Assembly: GCA_963675245.1 (NCBI GenBank)
Contig: OY775910.1
Location: forward strand, 1,184,001-1,248,000
Origin: Acholeplasmataceae bacterium
Lineage (GTDB): Bacteria > Bacillota_I > Bacilli_A > Acholeplasmatales > Acholeplasmataceae
DNA: 64,000 nt
Reading direction: 5' to 3'
This document shows, in pieces, positions 48,983 through 58,664 of this stretch (position 1 is its first letter; the number at the start of each line of letters is the position of its first letter). A program made the position numbers and the translations under genes. Under the pieces are notes generated by a model. It had not been told where the DNA came from. It worked only from the letters and a program-made list of their open reading frames with translations, and made no database searches.

Positions 48983-49021
48983 AAAAGGGTTATACTCATA
49001 ATTAAGAGTGTAATCCTTTTT
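48983..49021 (+). terminator. intrinsic terminator
   Basis: AAAAGGGTTATACTC-ATAATTAA-GAGTGTAATCCTTTTT (with G-U pairs). Confidence 0.82.
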
Positions 49022-49080: not shown

Positions 49081-49116
49081 ACCAATAAAAACCTACCTTT
49101 GATTGTATGGTAAGTG
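49081..49116 (+). promoter_or_regulatory. candidate ECF sigma promoter, copy 1
   Basis: ACCAATAAAA-N12-TTGTAT-G-GTAAGTG, same elements and spacing as 50706-50741. Confidence 0.7.
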
Positions 49117-49128
49117 TAAGGGATTATT

Positions 49129-49641
49129 ATGGACATGCAAAATCGTTTTATTATCGAATTTAAAAATCGTGACTACACGCATTTTGATGCTTTTTATGAC
49201 ATGACGAATCGGAAAGTCTTCTTTACGATTGTCGGTATTGTAAAAGATCAAATGATTGCAGAAGATTTAATGCAAGATACGTATATGCAGTTTCTAAAAA
49301 AAATCGATGACATTAACCCTAAACAAAATCCAATCGCTTATCTCGTAACTATCGGGAGAAATAATGCTCTCAATCATTATACGAAATTCAAAAGAGAAGT
49401 TAAGGGTGATGAGATATTTGAAACAATTGCTTCAGATGAGGTGATTAAGGATGATGTTGACATTTATCAATTACTTTCCTTACTAGATCGGGATGAACGA
49501 GAAATCGTTGTCCTTCATACCATCAACGGATTCAAATTTAGAGAAGTAGCAGATGTGATGGAAAAGCCACTCGGTACCATCTTATGGCTTCATAAAAAAG
49601 CGATGGATAAACTTAAAAACAAGTTAGGTGATTCACTATGA
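49129..49641 (+). CDS. ECF-type RNA polymerase sigma factor
   Basis: Region 2 AEDLMQDTY...YLVTIGRN.ALN; region 4 L...EREIVVL....GFKFREVADVM..PLGT. Confidence 0.93.
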   Translation: MDMQNRFIIEFKNRDYTHFDAFYDMTNRKVFFTIVGIVKDQMIAEDLMQDTYMQFLKKIDDINPKQNPIAYLVTIGRNNALNHYTKFKREVKGDEIFETIASDEVIKDDVDIYQLLSLLDRDEREIVVLHTINGFKFREVADVMEKPLGTILWLHKKAMDKLKNKLGDSL

Positions 49642-50690
49642 GAAATCGACAAATTAAAAAAATATTAATAGATAAAGCAAGCACTGTCGACATCCCTAAC
49701 GTTGTCGATCAAATTAAAGCACGCTTTAATGAAATTCCACCTAAACCGGTCATGACACAAACATATCGTAGACCACTCGTATTGGTTAGTGCATTGACAT
49801 TATCAATGCTTGTTCTCTTTGCAGTTGCATTTGGATTGGTTTATGGATTTAGAGATGTTGATCCATTAGCTTCTAGTGATGAGTCACTTCATGATGCTGT
49901 GATGTTATCATCTATTTCTACATTATCGTTAATCGATGATATAGATGCTTCAACCATCGAAACATTATCAGCAACTTTATTATCTAATCGACCAAACCAT
50001 GATGAAGAAGATGAAGATACGACTGTTTCTACAAGTGTTGAAGGACTTAAGAAATATTTATTCATGATGGAAACAGTTTTAAAATCACAAAATAATTATG
50101 AATATCAACGAAAAGTGATCAGTCGTGCTCAAAGAAGATATCAATTACAATTCCAGACAAGTTCACTCATTGATAATGAATCAAACTATGCATTAGTATA
50201 TGAAGTTAAAAATGATTCTAATGAAGCAGTTGAAATGACGCTGACGATGTATGGTTATAGTGAAACATACCATTCATATATTACATATCAAAAACGAACC
50301 GGTGTGATTAATATGACGACAGCCATCAATGATGATCAATCTGTCAGAGTGAGTTATAGCGAAGATACTAGTGGTAAGCATTATCAAATCACGACATTTG
50401 AAAACTTGATGATCACAGAACAAGTTCAAATGAATTTCACATCTCATGCACAGGTTGATATGTCTTTCATGAAAGGCAATGTCTTTGGCACTTATTCATT
50501 TAGTCTAACTGTCGATGAAAAAGGATATAAACGTGTCATCCTTGTTGATTACGATATTCAAAATCAATTTCAAGGACAAATCGAAGTGTTCGTTACAGGT
50601 ACAAATAATGATGCGTACACGATGATTGTAAAGCCGAATGGTAAACCATCATTTGTAATTACTGGAGAACGACACAGAGGAAGAAATTAA
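49638..50690 (+). CDS. putative anti-sigma factor (single TM, large extracellular domain)
   Basis: ATGA overlap with the sigma gene; basic ~45-aa N-terminus, one TM, beta-rich C-terminal domain. Confidence 0.65.
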   Translation: MRNRQIKKILIDKASTVDIPNVVDQIKARFNEIPPKPVMTQTYRRPLVLVSALTLSMLVLFAVAFGLVYGFRDVDPLASSDESLHDAVMLSSISTLSLIDDIDASTIETLSATLLSNRPNHDEEDEDTTVSTSVEGLKKYLFMMETVLKSQNNYEYQRKVISRAQRRYQLQFQTSSLIDNESNYALVYEVKNDSNEAVEMTLTMYGYSETYHSYITYQKRTGVINMTTAINDDQSVRVSYSEDTSGKHYQITTFENLMITEQVQMNFTSHAQVDMSFMKGNVFGTYSFSLTVDEKGYKRVILVDYDIQNQFQGQIEVFVTGTNNDAYTMIVKPNGKPSFVITGERHRGRN

Positions 50691-50705
50691 AAAAAACTGA
50701 AAATC

Positions 50706-50759
50706 ACCAATAAAATACCTCCGCCACTTGTATAGTAAGTGAGACGGAGGTATTATTAT
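50706..50759 (+). promoter_or_regulatory. candidate ECF promoter copy 2 within an RBS-masking hairpin
   Basis: ACCAATAAAA-N12-TTGTAT-A-GTAAGTG; AATACCTCCG (50714-50723) is the reverse complement of CGGAGGTATT (50745-50754). Confidence 0.7.
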
Positions 50760-51801
50760 GAAAAAAATTAAATTCCTAGTAACGATTATTGGTTTATTTG
50801 CAATCGTGTTAACTGTTGTTGCATGTCAAACAACAGCAAGCGCAGAAGAAGCTTATGTGACAATCGACATCAACCCAAGTGTTGAATTGATTGTCAATGG
50901 GCGTGAAGAAGTTGTTTATGTGAATGCACTCAATGAAGATGCAGAAGTTTTGTTGGCTGACTTAGATTTAGTTGGCATGCCAGTGGATGAAGCAACTGAT
51001 CTTATTATCGAAACAGCTATTGCACTAGGTTATATTGATATTGAAGCAACAGATACAGTTGTTCAAGTGTCGACATTATCAGATTCAGCACTTGGTGAAC
51101 AAATTAGAGAACGCGTAAAGGAATCAATTAATAATGCATTCCAAAATCGTGGTATCTATGGCCGTGCTGCAAATAAGGGTTACACTGAAGAATTCTTAGC
51201 TGAAGCTGAAAGTTATGGTGTTACACCTGCATTCTTAGCCTTTGCTAAAGCAGTTGTAGAAGTACAAGATGAAGTCACTCTAGAAGATGCACTGTTAATG
51301 ACACAAGAAGAATTAAGAGACATCTTAAAAGACGCTAGAGAAGCTAATTTAGATGTGCTTCATGAATTAAGAGATGATTTCCAAGCTGATAGACAAGCGA
51401 TTCATGATGAATATGATCCACAAATCGAAGCAGTATTGGCACAAATCACAGCACTTGAAACAAATATTGCATCTGTAGAAGATCAAATTGCTGCAGAACC
51501 ATCAGCAGAACTTGAAGCAGAATTAGCAACACTACAAGGTAATCTAGAATCATTACAAGCTGATTTACAGACATTATTAGATGATATGCATGCAGAACTT
51601 GAAGCATTAAGAGAAGCATTCCATACACAAAGTGAAGAATTAATGCCAAATATTATGGCACGTGTTGTACAACGTAGATCACAATATAGAAATACAGTTC
51701 AAAATTGGCTACGTAATCATGGCAATGGTAACATGAAAGATGCTATTGCAGCTTATCAACAACAACACCAAGATGATGATGAGGAAGATACGACAGAATA
51801 G
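50758..51801 (+). CDS. lipoprotein with RsgI-type (SEAL-like) domain and acidic coiled-coil C-terminus
   Basis: Lipobox VVAC (Cys23); AYVTIDINPSVEL.VN....V....ALNEDA..LL, the RsgI extracellular-domain signature. Confidence 0.82.
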   Translation: MKKIKFLVTIIGLFAIVLTVVACQTTASAEEAYVTIDINPSVELIVNGREEVVYVNALNEDAEVLLADLDLVGMPVDEATDLIIETAIALGYIDIEATDTVVQVSTLSDSALGEQIRERVKESINNAFQNRGIYGRAANKGYTEEFLAEAESYGVTPAFLAFAKAVVEVQDEVTLEDALLMTQEELRDILKDAREANLDVLHELRDDFQADRQAIHDEYDPQIEAVLAQITALETNIASVEDQIAAEPSAELEAELATLQGNLESLQADLQTLLDDMHAELEALREAFHTQSEELMPNIMARVVQRRSQYRNTVQNWLRNHGNGNMKDAIAAYQQQHQDDDEEDTTE

Positions 51802-51838: not shown

Positions 51839-51879
51839 AAAAAAGAGGTCACTCTTAACTGAGTGGCCTCGCTTTTTTT
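51839..51879. terminator. bidirectional terminator
   Basis: GAGGTCACTC-TTAACT-GAGTGGCCTC with A/T tracts; extra hairpin CCCATAA-ACCCC-TTATGGG at 51814-51832. Confidence 0.85.
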
Positions 51880-52423: not shown

Positions 52424-53345
52424 AATAATCTCCTTGATAACGATTTAACGCACGCATCCTTTTATCAATTTCATTTGTGACCACAAATTTCTTTTTGGTC
52501 CAAGTTGGTGCAATCAACATCTGACTTGGAGCATCTCCGGTTAAACGATGAATAATAATATCTGGTCTTAACCAAGATAATTGTTCAACCGTGATATCGA
52601 CATAGTCTTCTAAAGAAAGAAGATGCCACGGATTTTTTAAATAGTCATGACCCATTTTCGTTTTTTCCATTAAGTGAAGCATATGTATTTTAATCCCTTG
52701 TATATCAAGGGTATTTAAATGTTTGACGGTTTCAATCATCATGTCTTTTGTTTCATATGGTAATCCATTGATGATATGTACAACAACTTCAATGTGTCGT
52801 TTTCTAAGGGCATTAACGGCTTCATCAAAACAAGTTAAATCATGGGCACGATTAATCAAATCAGACGTTTTTTGATGGATTGTTTGTAACCCTAATTCAA
52901 CTTGAACAGGCATTCTTTGATTTAACGTTTCTAAATAATCTAATACGTCTAAAGGGAGCGAATCTGGTCTGGTACCAATCGATAACATAACGATATTCGG
53001 ATCAAGCGTTATCGCTTCTTCAAACAATTCTTTCAATCTTTTTAAAGGGGCATGGGTATTCGTATTCGCTTGGAAGTATGCGATGAAAAGTCCATCTTGC
53101 CATTTTTGTTGCATCATTGATTTCTGTCGTTCGAACTGATCTTTAAGCGAATCATGTTTGTCACCAGCAAAGTCACCTGAACCCATAAACGAGCAAAAAG
53201 TACATCCGCCACGTGCGACTGTTCCATCGATATTTGGGCACGTAAAACCACCATTTAAAGCGATCTTATAGACCTTTTTATGATAGTTGTGATAGTAATA
53301 ATTTGAGAGTGTATTATAATGTTTTTCAGCTGTCATTAAATTCAT
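52410..53345 (-). CDS. TIGR01212 family radical SAM protein (YtqA/MnmL-like)
   Basis: GFTCPNIDGT...GGCTFC, YFQA.TNT, IGTRPD, ELGLQT, HRLTGD. Confidence 0.92.
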   Translation of the reverse strand: MNLMTAEKHYNTLSNYYYHNYHKKVYKIALNGGFTCPNIDGTVARGGCTFCSFMGSGDFAGDKHDSLKDQFERQKSMMQQKWQDGLFIAYFQANTNTHAPLKRLKELFEEAITLDPNIVMLSIGTRPDSLPLDVLDYLETLNQRMPVQVELGLQTIHQKTSDLINRAHDLTCFDEAVNALRKRHIEVVVHIINGLPYETKDMMIETVKHLNTLDIQGIKIHMLHLMEKTKMGHDYLKNPWHLLSLEDYVDITVEQLSWLRPDIIIHRLTGDAPSQMLIAPTWTKKKFVVTNEIDKRMRALNRYQGDYYEKK

Positions 53346-53416
53346 ATTTTCACCATAATCATTTTATCATACCCTCACTTTATTATGTTATAATAAAACG
53401 AGAAGGAGATTACACA

Positions 53417-54211
53417 ATGTTCAAACGATTAATAATTAGCCTGACGAAACCCCCTCAACTCGTTTTATTCATGAAAGATTCATATAAAAGGATTATCTTA
53501 TATCTTATCTTATTACCACTAATATTAGTGATTCCTAGTGCGATTAGATTCGCAATCAATCCTGATATGAGTGTTGCTCAATACAACGCATTATCCGAAG
53601 TCCTTGAAGCAGATTTTAATCTACAAGGATCAACAATTGATGATGGCGTTTTTTCAACAACATTATCACAAACTGCTCAGTTTGATTACTTTCAAATTAC
53701 AACGACGACTACGGCATTAAATGCGTATTCAATGACATTTTATTTCGATACTGATAAAGTCATTCTTTACCTCGGAACTACAAGCTATAGAGATTTAAGT
53801 TATGTGAGTTTAGGTATTGAAAACTACACATTTGATTTCACTGATTCAAATAATGTGACGTTACTTGCTAATGCGATACGTACACTTTATAACACACAAC
53901 AACTCACCAATTATATTCAATTAATGAGTGTGTACTTTATTGGCTTAGTTGACTTCCTAATCGTTGTCTTGATGTTGGCTGTTATTGATTATTTTATTAT
54001 TCCGAATCAGCCATTTCCATTTAAATTAAGATTTAAACTTTCGGTCTATGGATCGACAATTTATATCTTTGCTGAATTGATTTTTATTCTAACGAATATA
54101 TCTCAATTAAACTTTATCAGTATTATTATTGCGTATGCTTATCATATTTGGATTTATCGCTCTATAAAAATAATACCGAAAGGAGTAAACCTCAATGGCG
54201 ACATCAAATAA
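53417..54211 (+). CDS. DUF1189-like membrane protein
   Basis: SLTKP..L, N-terminal TM, loop, 3 TMs with F...FKLSVY.ST; start ATG 53417 after AAGGAG; TGTTATAAT at 53386-53394. Confidence 0.7.
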   Translation: MFKRLIISLTKPPQLVLFMKDSYKRIILYLILLPLILVIPSAIRFAINPDMSVAQYNALSEVLEADFNLQGSTIDDGVFSTTLSQTAQFDYFQITTTTTALNAYSMTFYFDTDKVILYLGTTSYRDLSYVSLGIENYTFDFTDSNNVTLLANAIRTLYNTQQLTNYIQLMSVYFIGLVDFLIVVLMLAVIDYFIIPNQPFPFKLRFKLSVYGSTIYIFAELIFILTNISQLNFISIIIAYAYHIWIYRSIKIIPKGVNLNGDIK

Positions 54212-57200
54212 ATTTGATCTGTTCAAAGAACAACTCCAATTTAAATCAACCGTGCTCCAAGAAGCTGTTCTCAAGGATGTCATTGTCAGTGAGAAAAATA
54301 GTGCATGGCTTTTTGTCATTACACTCAATGAAATGGTTGCTCCTGATGTGTTGAACTTGTTCATAGTTCAATTAAAAACATATTTCTATATACCGAGAAT
54401 TAAGAATGACATTCATGTATTAATTACATACAAAGATCGTGCTAAATTAAGTGCTTATGCCACTTTATATTATGACTATGCGATTATTGAACTTTCTAAG
54501 GAAAAATCAAGCTATTTAGCACTTAAAAATTATAAAACGACTTTTGAAAATGATACGTTATTCATCTTAATTGATAAAGATAGTACGTATGTAAAAAATT
54601 ACTTTAAAGGGATTCTTACGTTTTTAAAACCGCTAGGCATCCAATTTGAAATTGCCTATAAAATCAATGATGAACTCACACCGACGAAAACGCTCATTTC
54701 GAAATCAATTAAAGACCAAACGAAAGTCCTAGTTGAACGTCAAAAATACGCGGCACAAACACAATCAAAAACAAAGAAATCTTTTACAAGAAAAGCGAGA
54801 CCTGATAGTGTCTCTATCACTGAAATCCCATTAGATCAATATCATCTTGATCAATATAAAAATCAAAAAGGCGACACAAACTTCCTCATTGAAGGTACTA
54901 TTTCAAAACTTGAAATCAGGGAGTTAACAAACACATCACTTTTAAGTTTTGTTTTATATGATGCTGATGATGCGATTACTGTGAAACGTTTCTTAAGACG
55001 ACCAAAAGACTTTGAGCTTGCTCAATCGTTAAAAGAAGGCGATCAAATTCAAGTCGAAGGTCGTGCAAATTTCGATACATATCAAAAAGATGTTGTCGTG
55101 TTTGCTGATGCGATTTATTTCCTTGATAAAGTGAAGAAAAAAGAACGCATGGACAAAGCAAAAGATAAACGTGTCGAATTTCATTTACATACGAAAATGT
55201 CCAATATGGATGGTATTGGGGAAGTATCTGAATATGTTGACACAGCTATAAAATGGGGTCATGAGGCAATTGCGTTTACTGATCATGATGGTCTTTATGC
55301 GTATCCTGAAATCTTTAAGGCAACACGTAATAAACCAATTAAACCTATTTATGGTGTTGAAGTAAACTTTGTTGATGAAGAAGCATTTAAAATTGCTATA
55401 CCATCAGATGAGGCAATTGATTTAAAAGAAGCGACATATGTCGTCTTTGATATAGAAACCACAGGTTTATCTGCTACTAGAGATAAAATCATTGAAATCG
55501 GTGCAGTAAAGATGAGTGCAACCTCCATCATTGAACGATTCCAAATTTTTGTTAATCCAGGAGAAGCTTTATCAACGTTTACAACTGAACTCACAGATAT
55601 AACAGATGAAATGCTTGAAAATGCACCTTCTATCGAAGAAGCTTTACCGCAATTTTTAGCCTTTGCAAAAGGTTCAATTTTAGTTGCACATAACGCAATG
55701 TTTGATGTGGGTCATATTGAGGAGAATGCAAAAGCACTAGGTTTATCATTTGATCAATCTAAAGTCATTGATACACTGAATGCTGCACGATATTTTTATA
55801 GTGACCAATTGAAACGGTTTAATTTAAAAGCAGTTGCTAGTTATTTTAAAGTGAAACAAGAACAACATCACCGTGCAGATGACGACGCGTTAGTCACAGC
55901 AAATATCTGGATGCTTATGCTGATTGATCTTCAAAAGTTCAAGATTAAAACGTATCAAGATATTAATAACGCCATTGATCCAAAAGAAGCATGGCAACAC
56001 CCAATGCCTTATCATGTCAATATTCTCGTACAAAACCAAGTAGGGTATAAAAACTTGTTTAAAGTAATGAGTGATGCGTTAACCGATCACTTCTCAAAAG
56101 GACCCCGTGTTTTAAAATCGGTATTAGATAAAAACAGACAGGGTTTACTCATCGGTTCAGGTTGTGCGAATGGTGATGTATTTGAAGCAGCACTTAATAA
56201 AAGTGATTGTGCTTTAGAAGAAGCGATCAAATATTATGACTATATTGAAGTTCAACCCCCACAAGCCTATGCTCACTTAAAAGAAGGATTAGGAGAATAT
56301 GCGGATTCAGTTATTGAAGCAGTCATATTAAAGATTATTAAAACAGCGAAAGCACAAGACAAACTAGTAATCGCGACCGGTGATGTACATTATCTCGAAA
56401 AGAATGATGTTTTATACCGTGAAATTTATATTAGAACACCGTTAGTTGGTGGAGGTATTCACCAATTATCTAAATATAATACAATGCCAGAACAGTATCT
56501 ATTAACCACAGAAGAAATGCTACAATCTTTTAAATTTTTAGATGAATCGTTGGCACGTGAAATTGTTGTTACAAACACACAAACACTCAATCAAAAAATC
56601 GATCGTATTCAAGCGTTTGTTGATGAATTATATTCACTACCTGATGATGCTTTTATGGAACAATTAGGTATTGAAAGTATTTCTGAAGAAGTCAGACGAC
56701 TCGTGATGGATAAACTATCAGCACTATATGGTCATGCACCACATCAATTGATTTCAGATCGCGTGAATAGAGAATTAACAAATATCATTGAAAATAGTTT
56801 CGCACCGAATTACTACATGTCACATTTACTCGTTAAAAAATCATTAGATGATGGCTATTTGGTTGGATCACGAGGATCTGTAGGGTCTTCTTTAGTTGCT
56901 ACGTTATTAGATATCACAGAAGTAAACCCATTAAAACCCCATTATCGCTGTCCTAATCGCGATTTTACGGCTTTCCACTTGACCGAGGAAGAAAGACTTA
57001 AATATGGTTTAACACCCGAACAAGAGGCATTTCAAGCTGCTTTTGAAGGTGTGCAATGTGGATATGACTTACCGACTAAAACATGTCCTATCTGCGGTGA
57101 GACATTGATTAAAGATGGCCATGATATCCCCTTTGAAACGTTTTTGGGATTCAATGGTGATAAAGTGCCTGATATTGATTTAAATTTCTCAGGCGATTAT

Positions 57201-58664
57201 CAAGCAAAAGCACACTCCTATGTACGAGAACTCATCGGTGAGGATCATACCTTTAGAGCGGGAACCATTCAAACAGTAGCTGAAAGAAATGCATTTGGTT
57301 ATGTGAAAGGTTATTTAGAAGATAAAAATCTAGTTAAAAGACCCGCCCAAATTGAACGTTTAGCAAAACGTATTGAAGGGGTTAAACGATCAACAGGACA
57401 ACACCCTGGTGGTATTGTTGTAGTGCCTAAATCAAAGACTATTTTTGATGTGACACCTATTCAATATCCAGCAGATGATGTCTCATCTGATTGGAAAACA
57501 ACACACTTTGACTACCACTCATTTGAATCTAATCTATTGAAATTAGATATTTTGGGTCATGATGATCCAACAATGATTAAATATTTAATGGATCATGTCT
57601 ATGAACATCCAGATGATTTCCCATTTACAAAAGCACAAGATATCCCTCTTGATGATCCAAAGGTTTATCGTTTATTTTCAGGTACGTCAGTGATTGGAGT
57701 TGAACCAGAAGAAATCATGAGTGATATTGCATCATATGCGATTCCTGAGTTCGGCACACCATTTACAAGACAAATGCTTGAGGATACGAAACCTAATACA
57801 TTTGCTGGTCTTGTTAAAATATCAGGCTTATCACATGGTACAGATGTGTGGCTTAGAAATGCACAAGCTTTAATCAACGGTGAATCAGATTATGGTAAAA
57901 TCTCATTTAACGATATTATTGCTTGTCGTGACGATATTATGGTACAACTTATCGAGTTTGGTTTACTCCCACTACGCGCATTTGAAATTATGGAATTTGT
58001 TAGAAAAGGTAAACCATCAAAAGATCCTGCAAAATGGCTAGATTACGAATCAGAAATGCGCAAAAACAATGTTCCTGATTGGTATATATGGTCGGCATCA
58101 AGAATTAAATATATGTTCCCGAAAGCACACGCGACAGCCTATGTGATTATGGCAATGCGTATAGCTTGGTTTAAAGTGTATAAACCACTCTTGTTTTATA
58201 GTGGATTCTTCTCTAAGCGTACCGATCAGTTTGACTATGAAATCATGGTTGCCGGATCAAACGCGATTAGAAATAAGCTTAATAACTTACAAGCCATTCC
58301 CCAATATATGTTAAAAGCGAAAGACGCATCTTTAATTGTTACATTAGGAGCAGCTTTAGAAATGACAAGAAGAGGTATGATTTTTCTACCTGTTGATATC
58401 AACCACTCTGAAGCAGCAATATTCAAAATGGAAGAAAAAGGATTACGCATGCCATTCAATACAATTGATGGTTTAGGTATGTCAGTAGCCTTAGATATTG
58501 TAAGTCAAAGAGAACAATCACCATTCATGTCTAAAGATGATGTAAAAAATAGAACAAAGATCAATAAAACCGTTTTTGAAAAAATGGAAAATTATGGTGC
58601 TTTCAAGGATTTAAATTCGGAAAATCATGTAATTGGAACGGGACTATTTGCACATTTAAACTGA
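54195..58664 (+). CDS. polC: DNA polymerase III PolC-type alpha subunit
   Basis: RVEFHLHTKMS.MDG, exonuclease VFDIETTG, GSRGSVGSS, KVPDIDLNFSG, KLDILGHDDPT, YMFPKAHA. Confidence 0.98.
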   Translation: MATSNKFDLFKEQLQFKSTVLQEAVLKDVIVSEKNSAWLFVITLNEMVAPDVLNLFIVQLKTYFYIPRIKNDIHVLITYKDRAKLSAYATLYYDYAIIELSKEKSSYLALKNYKTTFENDTLFILIDKDSTYVKNYFKGILTFLKPLGIQFEIAYKINDELTPTKTLISKSIKDQTKVLVERQKYAAQTQSKTKKSFTRKARPDSVSITEIPLDQYHLDQYKNQKGDTNFLIEGTISKLEIRELTNTSLLSFVLYDADDAITVKRFLRRPKDFELAQSLKEGDQIQVEGRANFDTYQKDVVVFADAIYFLDKVKKKERMDKAKDKRVEFHLHTKMSNMDGIGEVSEYVDTAIKWGHEAIAFTDHDGLYAYPEIFKATRNKPIKPIYGVEVNFVDEEAFKIAIPSDEAIDLKEATYVVFDIETTGLSATRDKIIEIGAVKMSATSIIERFQIFVNPGEALSTFTTELTDITDEMLENAPSIEEALPQFLAFAKGSILVAHNAMFDVGHIEENAKALGLSFDQSKVIDTLNAARYFYSDQLKRFNLKAVASYFKVKQEQHHRADDDALVTANIWMLMLIDLQKFKIKTYQDINNAIDPKEAWQHPMPYHVNILVQNQVGYKNLFKVMSDALTDHFSKGPRVLKSVLDKNRQGLLIGSGCANGDVFEAALNKSDCALEEAIKYYDYIEVQPPQAYAHLKEGLGEYADSVIEAVILKIIKTAKAQDKLVIATGDVHYLEKNDVLYREIYIRTPLVGGGIHQLSKYNTMPEQYLLTTEEMLQSFKFLDESLAREIVVTNTQTLNQKIDRIQAFVDELYSLPDDAFMEQLGIESISEEVRRLVMDKLSALYGHAPHQLISDRVNRELTNIIENSFAPNYYMSHLLVKKSLDDGYLVGSRGSVGSSLVATLLDITEVNPLKPHYRCPNRDFTAFHLTEEERLKYGLTPEQEAFQAAFEGVQCGYDLPTKTCPICGETLIKDGHDIPFETFLGFNGDKVPDIDLNFSGDYQAKAHSYVRELIGEDHTFRAGTIQTVAERNAFGYVKGYLEDKNLVKRPAQIERLAKRIEGVKRSTGQHPGGIVVVPKSKTIFDVTPIQYPADDVSSDWKTTHFDYHSFESNLLKLDILGHDDPTMIKYLMDHVYEHPDDFPFTKAQDIPLDDPKVYRLFSGTSVIGVEPEEIMSDIASYAIPEFGTPFTRQMLEDTKPNTFAGLVKISGLSHGTDVWLRNAQALINGESDYGKISFNDIIACRDDIMVQLIEFGLLPLRAFEIMEFVRKGKPSKDPAKWLDYESEMRKNNVPDWYIWSASRIKYMFPKAHATAYVIMAMRIAWFKVYKPLLFYSGFFSKRTDQFDYEIMVAGSNAIRNKLNNLQAIPQYMLKAKDASLIVTLGAALEMTRRGMIFLPVDINHSEAAIFKMEEKGLRMPFNTIDGLGMSVALDIVSQREQSPFMSKDDVKNRTKINKTVFEKMENYGAFKDLNSENHVIGTGLFAHLN

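Follow-up and report, generated by a model that had tools for sequence, protein, structure and literature searches.

The window analysed here is a stretch of 64,000 nucleotides from an Acholeplasmataceae bacterium, comprising positions 1184001–1248000 of a closed 1.63-Mb genome (33.9% GC, 99.96% complete). It contains a module of three open reading frames (ORFs), all on the (+) strand: a gene for an extracytoplasmic function (ECF) sigma factor (49129–49641), a gene for a protein with a single transmembrane (TM) segment (49638–50690), and a gene for a lipobox protein (50758–51801) that carries the SEAL domain of RsgI. A preliminary description of this DNA had listed an ECF sigma factor, a coupled single-TM protein, and a lipoprotein, and all three ORFs are found where it placed them. 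Positions are those of the window unless the genome or another locus is named.

The first gene encodes a 170-residue ECF (group IV) sigma factor that exceeds the cut-offs of PF04542, PF08281, PF04545, and TIGR02937, and consists of sigma-70 regions 2 and 4 only (Sigma70_r2 and r4/r4_2 over the Pfam cut-offs). The SigI model TIGR02895 does not match this gene, and nowhere in the genome does a match to it exceed the cut-off; together with the region 4 domains this rules out an identity as SigI, and the earlier assignment to ordinary ECF factors is borne out. All named NCBIfam ECF subfamilies shown for this protein are below their cut-offs. Besides the primary sigma factor, the genome encodes a 300-residue RpoD-like protein (genome positions 142684–143586, (−) strand) and a divergent 166-residue sigma-like protein (537027–537527, (−) strand). 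In a related locus (L082:802–3363), the sigma factor is seemingly fused to an upstream leuS-like ORF within an 853-residue frame, probably as the result of an assembly error.

The second gene, the start of which overlaps the stop codon of the sigma gene (ATGA), encodes a protein of 350 residues with one hydrophobic segment in its hydropathy profile and a basic N terminus (10 Lys/Arg and 4 Asp/Glu in residues 1–45). Its AlphaFold2 model, with a mean predicted local distance difference test (pLDDT) score of 85, includes two cytoplasmic helices within residues 3–32, a TM helix at 46–68 (49773–49841), and an ectodomain made of two helices followed by a β-meander of ~15 strands, with no SEAL domain. 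The family was assembled from the genes adjoining the loci of relatives, as a word-index search returned only the protein itself and one relative. Beyond one or two sporadic members, no Pfam family was found in 58 homologs, and a PDB sequence search with the family found no family either. A wide fold search yielded only middling β-sheet matches, none standing out and none clearly assigning the ectodomain to an ORD/OSBP-like or porin-like sheet (best Z 8.5, with a root-mean-square deviation (rmsd) of 8.6; ORP8 ORD, Z 8.2, rmsd 5.4, 185 residues aligned), and one homolog (P0122) matched unnamed structure-atlas clusters. At an E-value limit of 0.001, the family of the β-meander ectodomain has 903 representatives. 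From gene position and modelled topology we infer that this protein is an anti-sigma factor; coupling to the sigma gene, short cytoplasmic helices, a single TM helix, an ectodomain, and an RseP in the genome are what would be expected of an anti-sigma factor subject to regulated intramembrane proteolysis.

The product of the third gene, 347 residues long, starts with a signal peptide and lipobox (VVA-C23, 50758–50826, (+)), and is predicted to be lipidated at C23, a residue present in 76 of 76 aligned homologs. A mature linker leads to the sequence DINPS at residues 37–41, with 17 residues from C23 to N39. Both elements had been pointed out in the preliminary description, and a lipobox-type Cys combined with the motif [DE][IVLM]NPS is found in all of the best 120 of 162 homologs, so that their coincidence is not due to chance. 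The Cys is missing in three of the 61 loci having the middle protein (L106, L108, and L113), in which the SEAL domain is intact and the signal sequence ends in TAA or TSA. The linker also contains A27-S-A29 (50836–50844, (+)), a putative site for signal peptidase I (SPase I); among the 76 homologs A29 is kept in 71 and position 27 is mostly Val, Ala, Leu, or Ile, while the rest of the linker varies.

The SEAL domain (RsgI_M, residues 32–195; 50851–51342, (+)) is identified by sequence, profile, and fold, as a hidden Markov model search and structure prediction had been proposed to check. PF23750 matches residues 32–161 with 95.8 bits (cut-off 25.3; E-value 4e-27), a profile match to the RsgI chain 8HEP covers residues 40–192, and RsgI structures place the end of the domain at about residue 195. 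The PDB chains of RsgI that start at the cleavage proline align with the lipoprotein from P40. The AlphaFold2 model, built from 76 homologs (pLDDT 91; predicted template-modelling (pTM) score 0.83), includes strands 32–37, 41–46, 51–57, 100–106, and 135–139 in the five-strand α/β/α fold of RsgI-PD, and superimposes on the SEAL domain of Bacillus subtilis RsgI (8T9N_A) with Z 9.9 and an rmsd of 3.1 for 118 aligned residues. PF12791 (RsgI_N) is found neither in this protein nor in the 58 middle proteins, and the SEAL domain begins at residue 32, shortly after a 22-residue signal; the lipoprotein is thus devoid of a cytoplasmic sigma-binding domain, as had been noticed from the sequence. The peptide bond N39–P40 (50872–50877, (+)) is located in the modelled turn between strands β1 (32–37) and β2 (41–46) and is the predicted site of autoproteolysis. 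Residues N39, P40, S41, N59, and D61 are invariant in the 76 homologs, which share 40–67% identity, and D37 is present in 75; with D37, they correspond to D95, N97, P98, S99, N117, and D119 of RsgI2. In two loci (L123:5001–5991 and L050:3270–4260) the SEAL lipoprotein is split over two reading frames by a frameshift or a sequencing error.

With the SEAL domain taken to residue ~195, the remaining part (residues ~200–345) is modelled as a helical hairpin (helices 202–246, 250–321, and 327–344; 51361–51789, (+)) with pLDDT above 88 in the blocks covering residues 201–340. Residues 171–347 are acidic (42 Asp/Glu and 12 Lys/Arg), and the conserved positions of the hairpin are F208, R212, Y219, P221, and R285. 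A fold search with it gave generic coiled-coil matches only. In three loci of one genus (L186:3001–3768, (+), L187, and L188) the third gene has lost the Cys, the Asn-Pro pair, and most of the SEAL domain, and its signal sequence ends in TSA, yet the position of the gene, its upstream motif, and the helical tail (HHalign 88%) are kept. The persistence of the tail after loss of the SEAL core suggests that the tail is the cargo of the protein.

The motif CCAATAAA-N15-GTAT, which the preliminary description does not mention and which is likely an autoregulated ECF promoter, is located 5′ of the sigma gene (49082–49108, (+)), and a second copy is found in the 67-bp gap 5′ of the lipoprotein gene (50707–50733, (+)); the two upstream regions as a whole resemble each other. 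In a genome scan with a matrix derived from 115 motif sites, these are the best and second-best sites (35.4 and 31.7 bits), followed by one of 17.0 bits, and the maxima in three one-strand shuffles were 21.4, 16.7, and 12.2 bits. The motif is present 5′ of the sigma gene in 52 of 54 loci and 5′ of the lipoprotein gene in 60 of 61, as against none of 61 control regions, with identical spacing in 111 of 112 sites. The sole lipoprotein locus scored as lacking it (L115) has a motif visible by eye, the miss being an artefact of the window scored there. ECF factors that regulate themselves typically have a motif of fixed spacing upstream of their own gene, and the sigma factor of the module probably recognises both copies. 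A scan for sigma-70 promoters remained at the level of chance (14 found, 15.3 expected).

A strict pattern of the motif has 81 matches, distributed over 35 of the 36 genomes chosen for the module, and none in the reversed control. Among 41 family genomes chosen for the absence of the membrane protein, many of which are small, it has four matches, all in genomes that are 80–89% complete, and none in the 22 that are at least 90% complete. From their coordinates, 68 of the 81 matches were assigned by eye to sigma genes or to genes of SEAL or β-type lipoproteins; the other 13 precede exported proteins, namely seven of DUF2202 type (six with a Pfam match), two S8 proteases, and one trypsin-like protease, or look incidental (three). 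SEAL lipoproteins unlinked to the module, which were outside the matrix's training set, exceed 12 bits at 22 of 25 loci, compared with three of 151 neighbouring ORFs; these three are divergent subtilase-like genes, each with its own site. In three stand-alone loci, a subtilase gene and the SEAL lipoprotein gene are arranged back to back, with one motif site for each, and exported S8 subtilases with the motif were seen in L117, L124, L125 (as the divergent gene), L197, and L199. In seven genomes (L195, L198, and L201–L205), the motif lies ~55–63 nucleotides before the start codon of exported DUF2202 (ferritin-like) proteins; the host genome itself has no DUF2202 match.

The spacer of the second promoter copy is predicted to pair with the ribosome-binding site of the lipoprotein gene in an RNA hairpin (50710–50759, (+); −21.8 kcal/mol, z −6.6). 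The Shine-Dalgarno (SD) sequence has an unpaired probability of 0.0 in the long transcript and 0.9 in the short one, and the hairpin would form only in read-through transcripts.

No penicillin-binding protein (PBP) transpeptidase was found in any of ten genomes of the genus and no murG match in the host genome, and because of these absences a cell without a wall, as had been supposed, is supported. The genome encodes SPase I and RseP, and has two matches each to the Lgt and LspA families over the family cut-offs (genome positions 622717–623457, 1548306–1549001, 1598174–1598599, and 1469857–1470330).

The distribution of the module was surveyed in 148 family genomes, each at least 80% complete, of which 61 have RsgI_M and 78 match the profile of the middle protein. 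Orthologs of the latter, defined as the matches above a score gap at E up to 1e-66, occur in 60 genomes, and in all 60 an RsgI_M match lies within 400 bp downstream on the same strand, so that the triplet is kept in each of these 60 Acholeplasmataceae genomes; a synteny survey had been suggested as a check. A wider scan yielded 261 loci, the best 80 of which were classified. They include 58 with sigma factor, membrane protein, and lipoprotein, three that are cut by contig ends, three with sigma factor, a SEAL-bearing membrane protein, and a SEAL lipoprotein, and 16 without the sigma/membrane protein pair. The genomes surveyed are kin, and the counts indicate conservation rather than independent events.

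Two related kinds of module differ in the placement of their domains. Type B loci (L131–L138 and L189–L193) comprise a lipoprotein of the β family, a sigma factor, and a membrane protein of the β type, with no SEAL gene at the locus; the motif lies 5′ of the lipoprotein gene, and several Acholeplasmataceae genomes hold both this type and that of the window. Two type B sites in such genomes have a CGTT-like −10 element instead. In type S loci (L126–L128 and L174–L185), an ECF sigma factor is accompanied by a SEAL-bearing membrane protein without RsgI_N, with a SEAL lipoprotein after or before it, so that here SEAL is coupled to an ordinary ECF sigma factor rather than to SigI. By eye only, another motif, TTACTG...TGTTATA, was noticed upstream in several type S loci.

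The phylogenetic data bear on the origin of the lipoprotein. In a quick tree of the sigma factors, the type of the window groups with type B (Shimodaira–Hasegawa-like approximate likelihood ratio test (SH-aLRT) 91) and type S falls outside; the tree and the loci together indicate that the nearest relatives of this sigma factor are at the head of loci that have the same β ectodomain and lack a SEAL gene. In a tree of SEAL domains, equally quick, with 116 rows, long-branch warnings, and unresolved deep forks, a single branch (SH-aLRT 96) unites the lipoproteins of window type with the stand-alone ones and contains no anti-sigma SEALs. An approximately unbiased (AU) test on a 30-row subset of a short alignment (LG+G4) rejects a union of these lipoproteins with the anti-sigma SEALs (p 0.018); a union with type S lipoproteins is not rejected (p 0.59). 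The region following the SEAL core gives HHalign values of 96% to type S lipoproteins and 7% to type S membrane proteins. These comparisons indicate that the protein descends from an old line of lipoproteins rather than having been cut off from its neighbour. The β-meander ectodomain, the AU test, and the tail comparison led us to reject the idea that an RsgI was split into the middle and lipoprotein genes; the first two also fail to support the initial view that SEAL had been separated from this anti-sigma factor.

Two further groups of SEAL lipoproteins were seen in the survey. Proteins of 783–793 residues (L031:6365–8719, (+), and L032–L036) have three tandem repeats of SEAL plus helix, with Asn-Pro in 18 of 18 repeats, and would cut themselves into four pieces; all three that were scored (L031, L033, and L035) are preceded by the same motif. 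Unlinked paralogs of ~380 residues (L037–L043 and L047–L049) have a different C-terminal region, keep Asn-Pro with a variable residue in place of the following Ser, and have the motif in six of eight cases scored.

With moderate confidence, we regard the lipoprotein as the main output of the sigma factor. Its SEAL domain would cut itself and serve the helical cargo as a tear-off tether, rather than being the sensor of the anti-sigma factor. The lipoprotein gene is preceded by a separate motif copy, which is retained in unlinked loci, and one lineage has dispensed with the SEAL core. In such a scheme, the two cytoplasmic helices of the middle protein would hold the sigma factor, and its β-meander ectodomain would sense extracytoplasmic stress, leading to an RseP-type intramembrane cleavage that would release the sigma factor. 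Transcription of both its own operon and the lipoprotein gene would then proceed from the two motif copies, and in this genome the hairpin would hide the ribosome-binding site of the lipoprotein in read-through RNA, so that translation would take place mainly from its own promoter. Lgt and LspA would anchor the protein at C23 and SEAL would cut at N39–P40, with β1 of the 17-residue lipopeptide staying in the sheet and holding the other 308 residues non-covalently. As the most tentative step, the acidic hairpin, ~100 Å long, might bind damaged or foreign material at the surface, and load, heat, or binding might pull it off. It would then be shed as a protective factor, together with the ferritin-like proteins and exported proteases that have the motif in relatives.

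Several observations weigh against this reading or limit it. The lipoprotein gene directly follows that of the membrane protein in all 60 family genomes, an arrangement tighter than a plain member of a regulon needs, and in type S and type B modules the accessory lipoprotein and the ectodomain of the anti-sigma factor have one domain family in common, which may point to a signalling role. Residues R206 and R218 of RsgI2, which contact the cleaved β1, map via P0157 to L147 and F159 (Phe in 75 of 76 homologs), so that cleavage or retention may differ from that in RsgI. The conserved A-x-A at residues 27–29 is a possible alternative route of release. The hairpin that masks the SD sequence is recurrent, not general, as its pairing beats that of spacer shuffles at only 16 of 54 lipoprotein sites and three of 49 sigma sites; at some loci the spacer hairpin may be a terminator.

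The first two of these points favour the idea that the lipoprotein is a sensor or feedback partner that shields the ectodomain of the anti-sigma factor in the manner of RseB or MucB, with tear-off at SEAL, or exposure of the lipopeptide strand, permitting proteolysis of the anti-sigma factor; the sigma-dependent promoter of the lipoprotein would then close a feedback loop. It would also agree with the lipoprotein being the only other strong motif target in the genome, and the absence of a match to the site-1 protease PrsW in the host genome leaves the site-1 step unaccounted for. Yet the lipoprotein stands alone in 16 of the 80 best loci, with the pair of sigma factor and β ectodomain elsewhere in the genome in all five stand-alone genomes tested, L186–L188 have lost SEAL and the Cys and retain the anti-sigma-like protein, and type B modules have the same ectodomain family and no SEAL gene at the locus. 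We therefore consider a sensor or feedback role rather unlikely, and the three-component sensor proposed at the outset is weakened by the lipoprotein's own motif, kept when unlinked, and by the loss of SEAL in one lineage; the shedding device proposed next to it is favoured, with the motif making the lipoprotein a likely output of the sigma factor and SEAL its tether. A particular form of sensing, in which a family of ECF modules in wall-less Bacilli would detect force or surface damage in trans by means of a sigma-induced, self-cut SEAL lipoprotein, with the torn-off hairpin exposing the 17-residue lipopeptide strand as a tethered agonist acting on the anti-sigma factor, appears improbable; it would make the module a bacterial two-chain counterpart of adhesion G protein-coupled receptor signalling that also sheds a protective protein. 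On that view, each triple-SEAL lipoprotein would be a chain that can tear at three points between four pieces held together non-covalently.

Two other explanations concern the fate of the protein rather than its role toward the sigma factor. Cleavage by SPase I at A29–E30 would free the whole ectodomain including β1, making the lipid anchor temporary and the Asn-Pro cut a mere nick in a secreted protein. The conservation of A29 with an aliphatic or small residue at −3, the signal sequences ending in TAA or TSA in the loci without the Cys, and the SPase I encoded in the genome are in agreement with it; the lipobox Cys is, however, universal among the best 120 homologs and also present in the stand-alone, type S, triple-SEAL, and 380-residue forms, many of them without A-x-A, and SPase I would have to be able to cut the linker of a lipid-anchored protein. 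This course of events seems to us quite doubtful. Finally, SEAL might have drifted into a pedestal that no longer cleaves or never dissociates, leaving a permanently anchored surface coiled coil. The hydrophobic replacements of R206 and R218, the model forming one confident unit, and the dispensability of SEAL in one lineage would fit, but the five residues of the cleavage site area are invariant among rather divergent homologs, the triple-SEAL proteins keep Asn-Pro in every repeat, and cleavage of RsgI2 is described as having survived single substitutions of the surrounding polar residues, including R218 (PMC10328401). A pedestal of this kind is thus very unlikely, and the tear-off tether of a sigma-dependent cargo is the interpretation that we favour.

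The module is bordered on both sides by predicted hairpins. The ORF upstream of it, named leuS from family motifs in its sequence, is followed by a hairpin with a 15-bp stem (48983–49020, (+); −18.4 kcal/mol, z −6.3), likely a terminator that insulates the module, and a hairpin resembling an intrinsic terminator is located at its 3′ end (51845–51870, (+); z −6.8). Farther downstream, a DUF1189 membrane protein (PF06691, 42.4 bits; 53303–54211, (+)) is encoded immediately 5′ of a long polC-like ORF (54195–58664).

A sigma factor, a single-TM anti-sigma factor, and an exported third gene product share one locus in the RpoE-RseA-RseB and AlgU-MucA-MucB systems. The module has the same triplet layout and an RseP-type protease in the genome; it differs in that its third gene is preceded by a separate copy of the motif and encodes an autoproteolytic domain, and no sequence or fold relation to these triplets was found. 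A resemblance of another kind is offered by MALP-404/MALP-2 of Mycoplasma fermentans, where a lipoprotein of a wall-less host is cut, between mature residues 14 and 15 according to a review (PMC10502178), into a short lipopeptide and a released fragment. There the cut is made by site-specific proteolysis with free release, and the accessible text of the review describes no SEAL or ECF context. The MAIN (microbial GAIN) domains, proposed by Brogan and Rudner (10.64898/2026.05.12.724683) to shed cargo under force, are likewise autoproteolytic domains tethered to the envelope, with non-covalently held halves and shedding rather than transmembrane signalling. They have a different fold and a GAIN-type Ser/Thr nucleophile (His-Leu-Thr/Ser motif) instead of Asn-Pro, and are anchored to the wall or at the C terminus with enzymes, adhesins, or toxins as cargo, in place of an N-terminal lipid and a helical hairpin.

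Paracholeplasma brassicae belongs to the same order as this host. Its protein BN85316100, with a TM segment, SEAL, and an unnamed helical domain after SEAL as in the module lipoprotein, is described by Brogan et al. 2023 (bioRxiv 10.1101/2023.06.27.546760, Figures S12–S13), and its SEAL cleaves itself in Escherichia coli. The SEAL of a signal peptide-SEAL-PepSY protein of D. welbionis does so as well, and in both cases the halves stay associated (10.1101/2023.06.27.546760). Such SEAL proteins without an anti-sigma domain share with the module lipoprotein an N-terminal hydrophobic segment followed by SEAL and no sigma-binding domain. By description, BN85316100 is likely an ortholog of the module lipoprotein, although its anchor is called a TM segment and the accessible parts of the preprint do not mention a lipobox, its gene context, a promoter, or a function; no protein is named for P. 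brassicae among the lipoprotein homologs listed. The words lipoprotein and Tenericutes are absent from the main text of that preprint. The SEAL domain, its form without an anti-sigma domain, and the concept of shedding are thus already published, and the architecture is less new than the preliminary description implies. In a literature search that covered few subscription journals, we found no description of this module, of its lipid anchor, its placement of SEAL downstream of an ECF sigma factor in a host without a wall, its candidate ECF regulon, modules with interchangeable ectodomains, or triple-SEAL proteins.

The closest comparison is with the SigI/RsgI systems of B. subtilis and C. thermocellum (8T9N, 8HEP, 8HER, and 8HDJ), whose RsgI domain is matched by hidden Markov model, profile, and fold. 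The Asn-Pro turn between β1 and β2, at the cleavage site defined by Chen et al. (PMC10328401, where R206 and R218 of RsgI2 are described to contact β1), has the same Asp, Ser, Asn, and Asp neighbours, RseP is encoded in the genome, and the A-tract and YGTA −10 element of the motif resemble the A-tract/CGWA promoter pattern given for SigI by Li et al. (PMC10575876). Unlike SigI, which Li et al. define as lacking sigma-4, the sigma factor of the module has this region, and the adjacent anti-sigma-like protein has no SEAL. The SEAL protein itself differs from RsgI in having a lipobox in place of RsgI_N and a retained TM helix, and in lacking equivalents of R206 and R218, and its host has no wall-synthesis genes. 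In walled Firmicutes, SEAL is known as a sensor that acts upstream of a sigma factor, and the wall there helps to account for the force; here it is likely downstream of the sigma factor, lipid-anchored, in a host without wall-synthesis genes. The module raises the question of what the family of β-meander anti-sigma ectodomains senses, and offers a tight candidate promoter with a small regulon in a family that has cultured members, such as Acholeplasma granularum and Peloplasma aerotolerans. It thereby lets one ask, in comparison with RsgI, whether SEAL is a general release clutch, and which stress an ECF sigma factor answers in a wall-less cell.

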